Part shown: in pieces, positions 48,129 through 63,847 of the stretch
Numbering within the stretch: position 1 is the stretch's first letter
Layout of the letters: each line of letters starts with the position of its first letter
Source: Candidatus Eiseniibacteriota bacterium
GTDB taxonomy: Bacteria; Eisenbacteria; RBG-16-71-46; CAVPCR01
Assembly (NCBI GenBank): GCA_963823555.1
Contig: CAWGMA010000003.1
Location: forward strand, 352,001-416,000
Length of the DNA: 64,000 nucleotides
Reading direction: 5' to 3'
The notes under the pieces: generated by a model
Databases searched by the model: none
The model's input: the letters and a program-made list of their open reading frames with translations, nothing else
Told to the model about the DNA's origin: nothing
Made by a program: the position numbers and the translations under genes

Positions 48129-48270
48129 ATCTACAACGAGGATTGTAGATCTGGATGTCTTTACAGCCGCCGCGCGTAGCTCCACGATTGGTGACAGATG
48201 AGCGAGGCTTCAGGCGCCCGTGAGCGGGCGGGGCGTGTCGGCCAGTCCCGAACTCGAAGGAGGTGCTTCG

Positions 48271-48558
48271 ATGACGCAGCCTCTGCGGACCCGGCTTCTG
48301 GTCGTCGTGGTGGTTGTGGCCGGCGCTCTCCTCGCCGCGACACCGGCGGCGGCACGAGCGATCATGCCCTCCGGCGTCGGACCCGAAGTGTCGAGCCCGG
48401 GCGCGCTCGACAACCTGCCCGGGATGACCGTGACCGACGGCAACCACACCGTCGGCCCGATTCGTCCCCGCCCGTCGACGTCGGCCTGGGATCCCGATCC
48501 CGATGGGGTCGAACCGGCAACCTGGGGTCAGATCAAGGTGCAGTTCGCCGCGCGCTAG
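48271..48558 (+). CDS. Small secreted protein ending in TWGxIK motif
   Basis: AAGGAGGT RBS; signal peptide; C-terminus VEPATWGQIKVQFAAR. Confidence 0.75.
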   Translation: MTQPLRTRLLVVVVVVAGALLAATPAAARAIMPSGVGPEVSSPGALDNLPGMTVTDGNHTVGPIRPRPSTSAWDPDPDGVEPATWGQIKVQFAAR

Positions 48559-56701: not shown

Positions 56702-57322
56702 ATGGCCGCGGATTCTGGGATCGCACCCAGCGCGGACTCGAACGGGGCCGCCGGGGTCACCGGCGGTGGGGCGTTGCTGCGCCCCGATGACATCCTTCGC
56801 CCCGCCGGCCCCGACGAGCGCTGGACCCTCCTCTACACGCGCTCCCGTTGCGAGAAGATCCTCGGTCGGGCCTGCGCCCGGCTCGGCATTCGCCATTATC
56901 TTCCGCTCCAGCCGCACTCGACCTTCACCGGACGGCGCCGTGTCTACGCGCTGCCGCTCTTTCCGAGCTATCTCTTCGCCTGCCTCGATGAACACGCGCG
57001 TCTCGACGTGCTGCAGACGAACGTCGTCGTGCATGTCTTCCGCGTCGACCGGCCGGATGTGATGCTCGATGAGCTGCGGCAGATCCGTCAGGCGCTCGCG
57101 GCAGGAGCAGAGCTGACGGTGGGTCCGGAGCTCGGGCGCGGCGATCTCGTGCGTGTCGTGCGCGGCCCGCTCGCCGGTCTCGAGGGATACGTGCTCATGC
57201 GGCGGCGGCGGGCCGGGTGCCCGCGCCTCGTGCTCAATGTCTCGATCCTCGGGCAATCGGCCGCGACCGAGATCGATCCGTTCGATGTGATTCGCGTCGC
57301 CGAGGGCGCGCGGGCCGCCTGA
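56702..57322 (+). CDS. NusG paralogue (UpxY/RfaH-like antiterminator)
   Basis: NGN domain WTLLYTRSRCEK...PLFPSYLF; KOW GDLVRVVRGPLAGLEG; start uncertain. Confidence 0.88.
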   Translation: MAADSGIAPSADSNGAAGVTGGGALLRPDDILRPAGPDERWTLLYTRSRCEKILGRACARLGIRHYLPLQPHSTFTGRRRVYALPLFPSYLFACLDEHARLDVLQTNVVVHVFRVDRPDVMLDELRQIRQALAAGAELTVGPELGRGDLVRVVRGPLAGLEGYVLMRRRRAGCPRLVLNVSILGQSAATEIDPFDVIRVAEGARAA

Positions 57323-58850
57323 GGAAGTGGAAATCGCCTGATGGAGAAGCCGCGGGCGTGAAGCGCCGCCCGCCCCGACCGTGAGTCCGTCCGGTCCTCC
57401 ATCCGGCCCGGTCCCCGGTAGCGGGCAGGTTCGGCCTGCCGGTGAAGGGGACGGAGTCCGCCCGGGGAGCGAGCGCTGGTCGATCGGTGGAGGCGGGCGC
57501 CGCGAGGGCCACCTCGGCGGATGGACGCAGGCGAACGACGCCGGCCGAGGTTTCGCCGAGACGAACGCGCACCGGGTCCGCGAGGGGATCGATGAACACG
57601 CGCCACAACCAGGCGCCGCGACGGCTCGGGTGGTTCAGGCGACGCTCGGCTTCGGCGACGGGGATCCCGAGGAGGCTGAGGTAGGGGCCGAGCGCCTCGC
57701 GATCCGGGATCTCGAGGATCTCCTCGACCGTGATCATGAGTTCCGCGGTGAGCGGTGGCGCGCCCTGGGGAGCGGTTGCGGTGGGCATGAGCAGGAAGTG
57801 ACGGGCGACGGGCATCGGTCGGGGAGCCGTGGCGATGAGGCCGCCCTTCCTGAGGAGCAGCCCCTCGCCGCGCGCACGGAGGGCCGCAATCGCCTCGGGA
57901 ATCTCGCGTAAGGCGTAGGTGACAAGGAGTCTCGGGCCGACGGGCTGGCCGGAAGGAGCGAGCGTGGGCGGGCTCGATGCGGGAGGCAGCATCGTGAGCG
58001 GGCTCGTCGCGAGCTCCGCTTGCGGCTTCGCGAGGTGCGTGTAGCGCGTGGTGGTGTTGACGCTCGTGTGACCGAGCAGCGCCTGGATGACACGGAGATT
58101 GGTGCCGGCCTCGAGGAGGTGGGTGGCGAAGCTGTGACGGAGGGTGTGTGGCGTGGCCCGGCCTTCGAGCCTGGCCTTGACGACCGCCGTCGTGAACGCG
58201 CGCTGCGCCGCCCGCTCGGTCAGGTGGCCGCGACGATGCGGGCGATCCGCGCGTCGCGCTCCCAGGAACAGCCACTCGGAGCCCGGGCGCCCGGCGGAGA
58301 TCCTGTCGAGGAGGGGAAAGAGGCAGGCCGGGAGCAGCGAGAAGCGATCCTTCCTGCCCTTCCCCTGGCGGACTCGGATCTGGCCGCGATCGGTGCTGAG
58401 ATCCGCGATGCGAAGACGAACCGCCTCACCGATCCGAAGTCCCGAAGCGTACATGATGCCGAAGAAGAGGCGGTAACGTGGATCCTCGAATGCGGCGAGC
58501 AGTCGGAGCACTTCATCCCTGGAGAGCACGTGCGGGGCGACACGCTTCTCGCGCATCGGAGGCAGGCTCCCTCCCAGTTCGCGGTTGAGCACCGAGCGAT
58601 AGGCGAAGCGAACCGCGTTCCGGGCGAGCCGCATCTTGCTGGAGCCGTCCTCGCTGGTGTTGGCCACGGCCAGCAGGTAGTCGCGGATGTCGTCCTCCGT
58701 CACATCCTCGGGCGCCTTGCCAAGCGAGCCGAGAAAACGGCGCAGTGAGCCGAGATAGGTCTTGATGGTCTTCCTGCTGAAGCGACGGAGGAGCATCTCG
58801 TCGCGGACCGCATCGAGGAAGGGTTGGAGTTCGGTCCTGGGCGCTCGCAC
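57234..58850 (-). CDS. Integron-associated tyrosine recombinase (IntI-like, lacking IntI insertion) with C-terminal DUF1802-like extension
   Basis: N-terminal SAM-like R.FS.KTIKTY; YASGLR, KGRKDR, HTLRHSFATHLL, LGH..TTTRYTH; divergent from the cassette array. Confidence 0.88.
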   Translation of the reverse strand: MRAPRTELQPFLDAVRDEMLLRRFSRKTIKTYLGSLRRFLGSLGKAPEDVTEDDIRDYLLAVANTSEDGSSKMRLARNAVRFAYRSVLNRELGGSLPPMREKRVAPHVLSRDEVLRLLAAFEDPRYRLFFGIMYASGLRIGEAVRLRIADLSTDRGQIRVRQGKGRKDRFSLLPACLFPLLDRISAGRPGSEWLFLGARRADRPHRRGHLTERAAQRAFTTAVVKARLEGRATPHTLRHSFATHLLEAGTNLRVIQALLGHTSVNTTTRYTHLAKPQAELATSPLTMLPPASSPPTLAPSGQPVGPRLLVTYALREIPEAIAALRARGEGLLLRKGGLIATAPRPMPVARHFLLMPTATAPQGAPPLTAELMITVEEILEIPDREALGPYLSLLGIPVAEAERRLNHPSRRGAWLWRVFIDPLADPVRVRLGETSAGVVRLRPSAEVALAAPASTDRPALAPRADSVPFTGRPNLPATGDRAGWRTGRTHGRGGRRFTPAASPSGDFHFLRRPARPRRRESHRTDRSRSRPIARGSRH

Positions 58851-59024: not shown

Positions 59025-59175
59025 TAGAGCCCGTTTCGGCAGCCCCTGGCAAAAGCGAACCGGCCGAAGCTTAGTGATTGGTTCGGAAGCGGTTGAGAGG
59101 AGTGGGCCGGACCTGCAGCAGTGCCCCAACAGTCGGCCTGAATGCCCTTCCTCAACCGACCTTCGCCAATGGGCA

Positions 59176-59182
59176 GTTAAGC
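59176..59182 (+). other. attI-like core site G/TTAAGC (first cassette junction)
   Basis: Cassette A starts here as in the other copies, but the upstream sequence is not the attC right arm. Confidence 0.75.
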
Positions 59183-59660
59183 GCAGCTACGGGTCTTCGT
59201 TGAGCGCCGTGCCATTGGGGCTTGGGAGAGGTTCCGGGCGCAGCGACGGGAGCTTCGTTGTGGCAAGAGAAGGGTCCATGAGTCCCGTTGCGAGGCTTGA
59301 TCGGGAGCGCTGCGAACGATCGCTCGCCGTCTGAAGCTCGTGCCGCCCGGGCTTGAGGCACGCGTTTTGGGCGGAGAGTGCGCTGGTGTAGCCAGCTCCC
59401 GCCGCTCGTGCTTCGGCGAGGAAGAAGTGGGGAGAGGTGTAACGGTAGGGGCGGAGTTCAGGAGAGCCGAGATTTCTGGGAGTTGTCGGGAGAGGGCGTC
59501 GTCGCTGCGCCTAACGCGCGGCTAGGCGGCTCCGCTCGCTGCGCTCGCTTCGCGCAACCCGGCGCTTTCCGTCACGGCGCTTGCCGTGACGGGCGCGCTG
59601 GAGTCGACCTTGCTGCGGCAAGCGCCGCGCCGGGCGCCGGGTTCGCCAGCCGCGGTATCG
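59177..59660 (+). mobile_element. Cassette 1: gene-less cassette A (full) plus attC
   Basis: 333 bp from core G to GCCTAAC; near-identical to copies at 60995, 61488 and 63842. Confidence 0.85.
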
Positions 59661-59666
59661 TTAAGC
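59509..59666 (+). repeat. attC-like site 1 (158 bp)
   Basis: GCCTAAC...CGCCAGCCGCGGTATC-GTTAAGC imperfect palindrome. Confidence 0.85.
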
Positions 59667-60064
59667 GCAGCTACGGGAGTCCCGTTGCGAGGCTTGATCG
59701 GGAGCGCTGCGAACGACCGCTCGCCGTCTGAAGCTCGTGCCGCCCGGGCTTGAGGCACGCGTTTTGGGCGGAGAGTGCGCTGGTGTAGCCAGCTCCCGCC
59801 GCTCGTGCTTCGGCGAGGAAGAAGTGGGGAGAGGTGTAACGGTAGGGGCGGAGTTCAGGAGAGCCGAGATTTCTGGGAGTTGTCGGGAGAGGGCGTCGTC
59901 GCTGCGCCTAACGCGCGGCTAGGCGGCTCCGCTCACTCGCTGCGCTCGCATCGCTTCGCCCAACCCGGTCGTCCGTCACGGCGCTTGCGGCCGGGGCGGG
60001 GTTGAGGTTCACCTTGCTGCGGCAAGCGCCGCGCCGGGCGCCGGGTTCGCCAGCCGCGGTATCG
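59661..60064 (+). mobile_element. Cassette 2: cassette A with 87-bp internal deletion plus attC
   Basis: ctacggg joined directly to agtcccg. Confidence 0.85.
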
Positions 60065-60070
60065 TTTTGC
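59906..60070 (+). repeat. attC-like site 2 (165 bp)
   Basis: GCCTAAC...GGTATC-GTTTTGC. Confidence 0.85.
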
Positions 60071-60154: not shown

Positions 60155-60819
60155 GTGAGTAACTTGCCCGCACGTCGCGTGGCATCCTTGCCAGCCGCGA
60201 TCCTGCTCGTTGCGGTTGCCGGCTCTGCCCCAGCGCAGGACATTGTCATTGAGGCCGAGTTCTACCCGACCTGGGCCTGCTTCCCGACCAATGGCGCAGA
60301 GTCTCACCGTCCGATTCTCTGGCATCCTCGCTTACATCCACCGACCCCTTGCCGAAGTGCTCGCAGCATTCCCTGATGAGTGGGAGCGGGAAACCACGCA
60401 TCCGTGTTGGTCTGGATGTTCGACCGCCCGGTTTGCGGCTTCGCTTCGCCAACAGCACCTCCATATATCCCCCTTACATTCCAGGATACGTCGAGCGTCT
60501 GACGTTCGAGCCGCAACCTCCGGTCACAGTCGATTCCGTTCATGTGAATTGGTACCCCTTGCCAGGACAGGAGTCCCCTCCTTTCACGTTCTTTCCACCT
60601 TCATGCATGTTCGTCCTCGACGCTGATTCACAAGTCCTAGTCAATGCCGACGCCGTCATCAACTTGGTCGGAGTATACGCCTCTCTTGGCGGATACCATT
60701 GCTGTTTGGGGCTCGGAGGTGGGAATCTCCTGACGTTGCTCTCCATGACGAAGGCGTCACCATGCCTAATCGCAGTCGAGGAAGCCACGTGGGGGGCAAT
60801 CAAGGCCACATGGAAATGA
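60155..60819 (+). pseudogene. Cassette 3 (B): secreted protein ending in TWGAIK motif, apparently frameshifted
   Basis: Signal peptide in the 60155 frame; C-terminus VEEATWGAIKATWK in the 60349-60819 frame; lower GC. Confidence 0.6.
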
Positions 60820-60840: not shown

Positions 60841-61000
60841 GCATAACACGCGGCCTGGCGGCTCCGCTCGCTGCGCTCGCTCCGCTGCAACCCGGCGCCT
60901 TCCGTCACGGCGCTTGCCGTGACGGGCAGCGCTGGAGGTTCCTCTTGCTGCGGCAAGCGCCGTGCCGGCGCCGGGTTCGCCAGCCGCGGTATCGTTAAGC
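60841..61000 (+). repeat. attC-like site 3 (160 bp)
   Basis: GCATAAC...GGTATC-GTTAAGC. Confidence 0.85.
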
Positions 61001-61487
61001 GCAGCTACGGGTCTTCGTTGAGCGCCGTGCCATTGGGGCTTGGGAGAGGTTCCGGGCGCAGCGACGGGAGCTTCGTTGTGGCAAGAGAAGGGTCCATGAG
61101 TCCCGTTGCGAGGCTTGATCGGGAGCGCTGCGAACGATCGCTCGCCGTCTGAAGCTCGTGCCGCCCGGGCTTGAGGCACGCGTTTTGGGCGGAGAGTGCG
61201 CTGGTGTAGCCAGCTCCCGCCGCTCGTGCTTCGGCGAGGAAGAAGTGGGGAGAGGTGTAACGGTAGGGGCGGAGTACAGGAGAGCCGAGATTTCTGGGAG
61301 TTGTCGGGAGAGGGCGTCGTCGCTGCGCCTAACGCGCGGCTAGGCGGCTCCGCTCACTCGCTGCGCTCGCATCGCTTCGCCCAACCCGGTCGTCCGTCAC
61401 GGCGCTTGCGGCCGGAGGCGGGGTTGAGGTTCGACCTTTCTGCGGCAAGCGCCGCGCCGGGCGCCGGGTTCGCCAGCCGCGGTATCG
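60995..61487 (+). mobile_element. Cassette 4: gene-less cassette A (full) plus attC
   Basis: Near-identical to cassette 1 body. Confidence 0.85.
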
Positions 61488-61493
61488 TTAAGC
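61327..61493 (+). repeat. attC-like site 4 (167 bp)
   Basis: GCCTAAC...GGTATC-GTTAAGC. Confidence 0.85.
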
Positions 61494-61980
61494 GCAGCTA
61501 CGGGTCTTCGTTGAGCGCCGTGCCATTGGGGCTTGGGAGAGGTTCCGGGCGCAGCGACGGGAGCTTCGTTGTGGCAAGAGAAGGGTCCATGAGTCCCGTT
61601 GCGAGGCTTGATCGGGAGCGCTGCGAACGACCGCTCGCCGTCTGAAGCTCGTGCCGCCCGGGCTTGAGGCACGCGTTTTGGGCGGAGAGTGCGCTGGTGT
61701 AGCCAGCTCCCGCCGCTCGTGCTTCGGCGAGGAAGAAGTGGGGAGAGGTGTAACGGTAGGGGCGGAGTTCAGGAGAGCCGAGATTTCTGGGAGTTGTCGG
61801 GAGAGGGCGTCGTCGCTGCGCCTAACGCGCGGCTAGGCGGCTCCGCTCACTCGCTGCGCTCGCATCGCTTCGCCCAACCCGGTCGTCCGTCACGGCGCTT
61901 GCGGCCGGAGGCGGGGTTGAGGTTCGACCTTTCTGCGGCAAGCGCCGCGCCGGGCGCCGGGTTCGCCAGCCGCGGTATCG
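61488..61980 (+). mobile_element. Cassette 5: gene-less cassette A (full) plus attC
   Basis: Tandem copy of cassette 4. Confidence 0.85.
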
Positions 61981-61986
61981 TTATGT
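61820..61986 (+). repeat. attC-like site 5 (167 bp)
   Basis: GCCTAAC...GGTATC-GTTATGT. Confidence 0.85.
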
Positions 61987-62024
61987 GCCCTGCACACCTG
62001 ACCATTGGGAGAAAGGGACTCGAC

Positions 62025-62732
62025 ATGAGGCCTCGCGCTAGCGCGCTCATCATCTCTATTCCTCTGCTTGTCTCGTTGGCGCTCTTCGTTCCCTCCTGCG
62101 GGGACGATGATGGCCCCGCGGCTCCCGATCTCGCCAGCGCTTACCTCATTCAAGCAACCCTCGTGCTCAGCACGGAAACTGCCACCGTCGCCGTCTCCCG
62201 CCTCGATGCCAGCGACCCTTCGGCTGCCACTGCTGTAGTCCTGCTCGATGGTCACGGCATGCAGCACTCGGCAAACAACACACCAGACCAGGCAACCTTC
62301 CTGTCGCAGGTTCCCACGAATCCCGGCCACGCCTACGCCTTTTCCGTCACCGTCGACGGCGTCAGCGCCTCAGGCACCCTCGCTACTCCTGATCAGCCAT
62401 GCACGGTTGCCATCACGCAACCGCCGCCTGGGAATCTGACGTTCTCGTCGGGCACCGATCTCGCTCTTCAATGGGAATACGTCGGCTCCGAACCAGGGGA
62501 GTTTGGCGTCTTTGGATCGAGTGTCGCCTTTCCCCCTCGCGTCTTCTCAGATACTCTACAGGCGAGTGCACGGTCGGCCGTTGTCGAGACATCGCAGTGG
62601 TCGCTCGCATCCCAGGTGTTCCTGCGAGTCACGGCCCGGACACGAGCGGAGATCTCCGGAGACCTTGCTGCCCCAACAAGCTCATCATTTGTTGACTTCG
62701 CTACATCGGAGGTCATTCTCACCCGTAGGTAG
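62025..62732 (+). CDS. Cassette 6 (C): hypothetical lipoprotein (235 aa)
   Basis: AAAGGGA RBS; MRPRASALIISIPLLVSLALFVPS-C lipobox-like; stop ~20 bp before attC. Confidence 0.8.
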   Translation: MRPRASALIISIPLLVSLALFVPSCGDDDGPAAPDLASAYLIQATLVLSTETATVAVSRLDASDPSAATAVVLLDGHGMQHSANNTPDQATFLSQVPTNPGHAYAFSVTVDGVSASGTLATPDQPCTVAITQPPPGNLTFSSGTDLALQWEYVGSEPGEFGVFGSSVAFPPRVFSDTLQASARSAVVETSQWSLASQVFLRVTARTRAEISGDLAAPTSSSFVDFATSEVILTRR

Positions 62733-62754: not shown

Positions 62755-62915
62755 ACATAACACGCGGCCTGGCGGCTCCGCTCGCTGCGCTCGCGTCGCC
62801 CAACCCGGCGCTTTCCGTCACGGCGCTTGCCGTGACGGGGCCGCGCTGGAGGTCCACTTTGCTGCGGCAAGCGCCGTGCCGGGCGCCGGGTTCGCCAGCC
62901 GCGGTATCGTTTTGC
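62755..62915 (+). repeat. attC-like site 6 (161 bp)
   Basis: ACATAAC...GGTATC-GTTTTGC. Confidence 0.85.
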
Positions 62916-62984: not shown

Positions 62985-63659
62985 TTGATCTTTGGCAGTA
63001 ATCTTGGTCTTGCCGGCGTGGCGTTGCTGGCGCTTAGCCTCACCATGCGAGTTGCCGAGGCAGTTGACAACGAGCCACCCACCTGCGATCACGGCGGACC
63101 CTACGAGTGCATTCCCCAGCACGCTGTGGAGTTTGATGGCCGTGGATCCTACGACCCCGACGGTGTCATCGTGAGCTACGTCTGGTCGTTTGGTGATGGG
63201 CACACCGCCACCGGCGCGCTGGTCACGCACAGATACGAGGTCGTCGGCTCCTTCACCGTCGCGCTTCTCGTCACGGATAATGATGACAACTTCAGCGTCT
63301 GCGAGACCATTGCCCGCATCGTCGAACCGTGCCCTGGCAATTGCCCCCCGATCTGCGACGCTGGTGGCCCTTACCACGGCATAGCTGGTGTCCCGATTCA
63401 ATTCGATGGGTCGGGCTCGCTCCCCGTCATCGCTTGCATCCCGCTGGTCCAATTCGCATGGACATTTGGAGACGGGGCGACCGCCGTCGGCCCGCAACCG
63501 CTGCGCACTTACACGACGCCCGGCGACTTCAATATCACGCTCACGATCGTGGACTCTGACGGAGCCACCTCATCCTGTTCCTCCGTCGCAGTGGTTGCGG
63601 AACCCTCTGGAGTCGACCCCACCACATGGGGACGCATCAAGAACACAGTCCTGGAATGA
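62985..63659 (+). CDS. Cassette 7 (D): secreted tandem-PKD-domain protein ending in TWGRIK motif
   Basis: AAGGAGGT RBS, TTG start, signal peptide; two FDG.GS...W.FGDG PKD repeats; VDPTTWGRIKNTVLE. Confidence 0.85.
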   Translation: MIFGSNLGLAGVALLALSLTMRVAEAVDNEPPTCDHGGPYECIPQHAVEFDGRGSYDPDGVIVSYVWSFGDGHTATGALVTHRYEVVGSFTVALLVTDNDDNFSVCETIARIVEPCPGNCPPICDAGGPYHGIAGVPIQFDGSGSLPVIACIPLVQFAWTFGDGATAVGPQPLRTYTTPGDFNITLTIVDSDGATSSCSSVAVVAEPSGVDPTTWGRIKNTVLE

Positions 63660-63689: not shown

Positions 63690-63847
63690 GCAAAACACGC
63701 GGCCGGCGGCTCCGCTCGCTGCGCTCGCTTCGCCTAACCCGGCGCTTTCCGTCACGGCGCTTGCAGTGACGGGCCGCGCTGGAGTCCATCTTGCTGCGGC
63801 AAGCGCCGTGCCCGGCGCCGGGTTCGCCAGCCGCGGTATCGTTAAGC
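63690..63847 (+). repeat. attC-like site 7 (158 bp)
   Basis: GCAAAAC...GGTATC-GTTAAGC. Confidence 0.85.

Follow-up and report, generated by a model that had tools for sequence, protein, structure and literature searches.

An integrase fused to a DUF1802-derived domain beside an integron-like cassette array in Candidatus Eiseniibacteriota

A stretch of 64,000 nucleotides from Candidatus Eiseniibacteriota bacterium (assembly GCA_963823555.1, contig CAWGMA010000003.1, positions 352,001 to 416,000; hereafter the window) contains an open reading frame in which a tyrosine recombinase is continued, across a Pro/Ser-rich linker, by a domain derived from DUF1802. The gene lies beside an array of cassettes with attC-like sites and is convergent with the gene for a NusG paralogue (Table 1). 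We refer to the genome as G000 and to the contig carrying window and array as C3. Either of two starts is possible for the fused protein, the one in Table 1 or ATG 58796, which is the collection's call and gives 520 aa.

Table 1. Position of the features at the locus, in window coordinates
Feature	Position	Strand	Basis
UpxY/RfaH-like NusG paralogue (start uncertain)	56702..57322	+	convergent with integrase, co-oriented with cassettes
Fused open reading frame, 538 aa from GTG 58850	57234..58850	-	open frame, 538 codons
Read-through extension, 75 codons past codon 463 (CGG, 57462-57464)	57234..57464	-	comparison with G001, L019
Conserved non-coding element (GGTAG box, hairpin, CCGGTGA box)	57417..57456	+	downstream of NusG paralogue
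DUF1802-derived domain, residues 305-451 (147 residues)	57498..57938	-	Pfam and profile-profile homology
Pro/Ser-rich linker, about 20 residues	57939..57995	-	sequence
Tyrosine recombinase part (Phage_int_SAM_4 and Phage_integrase)	57996..58820	-	profile matches, motifs
Putative attI, GTT 59176-59178 at start of first cassette	59160..59183	+	position
attC-like site 1	59509-59666	+	repeat
attC-like site 2	59906-60070	+	repeat
attC-like site 3	60841-61000	+	repeat
attC-like site 4	61327-61493	+	repeat
attC-like site 5	61820-61986	+	repeat
attC-like site 6	62755-62915	+	repeat
attC-like site 7	63690-63847	+	repeat

A conserved and rare gene fusion

The in-frame integrase tail, its linker and the DUF1802-type motifs are present where the original prediction, made from the bare sequence, had placed them. 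No indel or missed stop is seen at the junction in public contigs from two runs. That of run X1, possibly the source sample, covers 57617-58079 with two substitutions and no gaps, and that of run X2 covers 57819-57969 with no differences. An in-frame orthologue, P0004 (464 residues), is encoded in a genome of the same genus (G001) in identical gene order. Its tail is 52% identical to that of the window, and its linker has about 50 residues; linker length is thus variable.

The fusion is real, conserved and rare. Of 7999 candidates scored in the range of 295-942 residues, only the window protein and P0004 matched. A 269-residue metagenome fragment, P0012, joins the end of the integrase to the tail in a single frame, with P0006 and P0011 as shorter calls of its cluster, and three further tails (P0007, P0008, P0019) are fragments with no visible context. 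When all 1.84 billion representatives were scanned, three strong matches, all from this small tail family, and one weak match emerged; a clear tail match occurs in two of the 206 genomes of the phylum. The tail is under selection, with dN/dS of about 0.37 in all three pairs compared at dS of about 1, against 0.15-0.31 for the integrase part (rough NG86 values, biased by the high GC content). No literature on fusions of integrases with DUF1802 or ASCH was found in a search that left most subscription journals outside; similar recombinases may be listed in the supplementary files of PMC4889954.

The suspicion that the true stop had been lost was borne out. In G001 and at a further locus, L019, a TGA stands at the position of codon 463 of the window, 12 bases before the conserved element. 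A contig of run X4, from another study, covers 57401-57551 including this codon with no differences, so the lineage-specific read-through is natural. The last 68 codons do not have the GC pattern of coding sequence (second position 0.78, third 0.65). The extension had been expected to overlap the convergent NusG gene; this holds for its last 30 or so codons only, and the remainder runs over the intergenic region and the conserved element. A tolerated read-through with no role is the best explanation of the 75 codons.

Origin and predicted fold of the tail

DUF1802 (PF08819) was the sole Pfam match of the window tail, at 18.4 bits (E 0.002), which is under the gathering cut-off of 25 bits; the orthologous tail of G001 scores over it (29.7 bits, E 6.7e-7). 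Profile-profile alignment by HHalign of six tails with 105 DUF1802 proteins extends over 134 columns (97.1%, E 6.3e-11), so that the homology spans the domain and the original assignment to DUF1802 stands. The ALxE, RKGG and FxLxP motifs are kept, and the RKGG, F-L-P and Arg positions are retained in every tail that covers them. Sixteen of the 37 near-invariant positions are kept in the window tail and 21 are changed, near-invariant meaning conserved in 90% or more of 86 family rows, which are relatives of one member rather than the whole family. DUF1802 has about 195 residues and the tail about 145, the middle segment and the C-terminal helix being gone, and the 120 members among the matches listed (106-340 residues) are single-domain in size, unlike the fused tail. 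The tail is DUF1802-derived but not a typical DUF1802 member.

The structural model predicts a beta-barrel of the ASCH/PUA fold, which would place the tail in a nucleic-acid-binding superfamily. This superfamily includes ZmASCH (5guq), AF2351 (2kku), YqfB (9kyf), the ASCH domain of TRIP4, EVE and YTH; the tail is 6-11% identical to the best matches. ASCH enzymes contain the octapeptide GxKxx[E/T/S]xR with a catalytic Lys and a Glu or Thr (PMC5615036; 10.64898/2026.02.27.708502). At residues 327-334 of the tail, as placed by spacing and secondary structure, the Arg alone is kept. The catalytic Lys and Glu/Thr are absent by this placement, and nuclease or amidohydrolase activity is not expected. 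DUF1802 is linked with Mrr-type restriction nucleases. In the literature searched, a single paper mentions it (PMC6155114), and the family now gains a predicted ASCH/PUA fold.

The integrase, its array and the adjoining NusG paralogue

Residues 11-275 match Phage_int_SAM_4 and Phage_integrase, all six catalytic residues (R139, K167, H235, R238, H261, Y270) are present by sequence and alignment, and the recombinase ends with the SPL motif typical of IntI. The best NCBIfam match is the integron integrase model TIGR02249, at 208.9 bits and thus under its cut-off of 265. As had been proposed, the IntI insertion is missing: compared with VchIntIA (PDB 2a3v) and with the genome's own IntI, the enzyme is short of about 36 residues spanning I2. 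The distance from KDR to HxLRH is 63-65 residues in the fused clade and 97-104 in the seven IntI rows measured. A 24-row tree groups the three fused integrases as a clade (100/100) that falls outside the eight IntI rows (100/99) and shares an unresolved fork with further SAM_4 integrases that have no insertion; I2 may have been lost or may have been absent from the start.

A repeat of 158-175 bases occurs in 22 copies in G000, all within C3:411503-432859 and seven of them in the window. Nineteen of the 21 sites given to the script for R-box comparison were parsed. R'' fitted the R' of the previous site better at 11 of the 18 sites with a predecessor, equally well at five and less well at two, as circular cassettes require. 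A putative adjacent attI and an array bounded by attC sites with complementary R boxes, the marks of an integron, are present. Canonical attC sites have an unpaired central spacer, made up of two non-complementary spacers of about 5 nt, and a canonical L-box register (PMC2727003). The window sites lack the canonical central spacer and L-box register. Their arms pair in a shifted register, with a 1x5 internal loop beside the crossover core, a paired stem and one extra base; the right arm is 3-4 nt longer, and variants are changed on both arms. The extrahelical base of the R''-L'' arm is kept as a single unpaired base at position 8-9 after AAC.

A filter for this shifted register finds 18 sites in G000, 22 in G001 (one end doubtful) and four of the five of L019. 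In 72 kb from four classical-integron loci, with 24 canonical sites, it finds none. A loosened canonical filter fires in these GC-rich arrays with 18 rows, mostly at wrong ends and three at true ends. The two site types are unmixed in the stretches examined, and the classical IntI has a canonical array of its own. The five sites of L019 lie upstream of its copy of the integrase. In G001 the integrase is at the end of contig C1 and contig C4 starts with about 30 sites; no overlap was seen between the two contigs, and a join is probable. At seven other loci of insertion-less integrases in the phylum (14-20 kb examined), a comparable cassette array is absent.

Further observations concern the cassettes. 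One of about 330 bases, apparently non-coding, occurs at least four times (59176-59508 in first position, 60994-61326, 61487-61819 and from 63841 onwards), with a shorter version at 59660-59905; this points to recent duplication and shuffling. Secreted-looking proteins are encoded at 60349-60819, 61940-62732 and 62985-63659 and in cassettes of L019, one with PKD domains; they end in a motif of the type 'ATWG.IK', found also in chromosomal genes (48220-48558 and in L019). The first cassette of L019 (5120-5700), read by eye, is a two-gene toxin-antitoxin-like pair. Two copies of the attC family at G001:C1:1378045-1379026 (L042) are separated from the fused integrase by about 165 kb and may be cassettes that entered a secondary site. 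The classical integron at G000:C3:8567-16000 (L022) has its IntI co-oriented with at least five canonical attC sites, among which are an IS-like transposase and a cassette of toxin-antitoxin-like type. Its NusG paralogue is separated from intI by a stretch containing a hairpin and a run of T. In the classical integron of G001 (L041:4575-6230), near-identical cassettes of about 316 bases stand in tandem.

The NusG paralogue and the conserved element adjoin six integrases, and L019 as well (loci L041, L055, L056, L014; G000:C3:16167-16865). Four of the six are classical IntI, co-oriented with the paralogue (G000, G001, G010, G047); the fused integrases of G000 and G001 are convergent with it. 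Wherever the array shares the contig, it runs on the strand of the paralogue, which suggests antitermination through the cassette arrays. For three of the nine paralogue genes from the phylum search, the sequence read contains no integrase; two of these, in G001, have the element and the third, in G003, lacks it. The copy beside the fused integrase of G001 (L014:7961-8600; G001:C1:1541975-1542489) is split over two frames by a frameshift or an assembly error. The element, for which Rfam gave no match, presumably resembles an ops site. No literature tying a NusG paralogue to integrons was found in our search, outside which lay most subscription journals; the present work points to control of cassette arrays by such a paralogue.

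Proposed role and relation to known integrons

We propose that the fused protein serves an integron-like cassette system as an integrase that does without I2, and that its DUF1802-derived tail, of predicted ASCH fold, likely provides a grip, without catalysis, on unpaired DNA in the differently shaped hairpins of the array's own attC sites. We give this reading a probability of about 0.45. The insertion-less enzyme, rather than the classical IntI, would recombine its own type of attC, as its position and the separation of the site types suggest. The tethered domain, to judge by its predicted fold, may bind unpaired hairpin DNA, whether at the bulge, at the extra base or in the long terminal loops; this binding could raise affinity or influence strand choice.

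Several findings weigh against this proposal. The predicted model reflects the fold of the DUF1802 family, because its alignment consisted of 86 DUF1802 rows and seven tails. Of the KEW, PTxxH, RFxY and GCxSW residues of DUF1802, the tail lacks the Trp, His, Tyr, Cys and Trp, and its charge is near neutral (18 basic and 15 acidic residues). The shifted-register filter was tuned on these very sites. A complete classical IntI (463 bits) is encoded on the same contig, C3. A genome survey judged recombinases near attC that have no IntI domain not to be IntI (PMC4889954); none of its four intermediate cases had as many as three sites. Finally, in L019 and L020, which are identical over 5167 bases and are counted as one, integrase and tail lie in different frames beside an intact-looking array.

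The last point, with the loss of pocket and catalytic residues, the near-neutral charge and the variable linker, would also suit an integrase that runs the array alone, its tail being structural, a protein contact (for synapse stability or a host factor) or a dispensable passenger. We consider this rather unlikely. A pure passenger is at odds with the dN/dS of the tail, and the positions retained in every covering tail also speak against the idea. The frameshift of L019 falls within a homopolymer of C at the SPL motif, with no start codon ahead of the first motifs of the tail; it may be an assembly error, and the L019 tail is under the same selection as the others.

It is a good deal less probable that the classical IntI recombines the array in trans, with the fused protein as helper or regulator or as an enzyme for attI or other double-stranded sites. 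G001, like G000, encodes a complete IntI, and the array sites retain R boxes and the extra base. I2 docks the extrahelical bases of attC, and its region is described as the basis of attC processing (PMC7790495); for 29 of the 50 such recombinases near attC in the survey, the genome had an IntI at another place in the replicon (PMC4889954). The classical IntI, however, has its own canonical array with site types unmixed where examined, and the fused integrase, at 68-72% identity, still heads the array. Equally doubtful is the original idea of a sensor of RNA or a modified base (in the transcript of the neighbouring element or in incoming DNA) that gates the integrase: ASCH, EVE and YTH relatives bind such ligands and the gene is convergent with the NusG paralogue and its element, but the conserved Trp and Tyr of DUF1802 are replaced in the tail, and paralogue and element also adjoin classical IntI genes, which are tail-less.

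A broader version of the proposed grip would be that a lineage without I2 reached single-strand attC recombination through a captured ASCH-fold domain, whose pocket docks unpaired bases of co-evolved attC sites, and that one genome runs two orthogonal integron systems, both under antitermination by a NusG paralogue. This version we regard as unlikely. I2 counts as the innovation that defines integron integrases, and recombinases without it are discarded by detection tools. As a classical integron and an insertion-less system, whose sites differ in shape, occur together in one genome, enzymes and sites can be cross-tested directly, with and without the extra domain.

Among known systems, insertion-less SAM_4 recombinases (NF040815 XerA-like and y4qK-like plasmid integrases) also lack I2; they are 32-40% identical to the fused integrase, and their segment before HxLRH is 4-12 residues shorter than in the fused clade. 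Sedentary chromosomal integrons, with VchIntIA as the best PDB sequence match (E 1.3e-42), have in common with the window system the SAM_4 N-domain, the catalytic residues and the SPL end, as well as a divergent integrase, attI, a long array and the R-box signature of circular cassettes; they differ from it in the register of the attC arms. From IntI as defined by TIGR02249, the window integrase differs by the missing I2 residues, the score below cut-off, its place outside the IntI clade and the C-terminal tail of predicted ASCH fold. The system probably functions as an integron does, yet its integrase is not filed as IntI.
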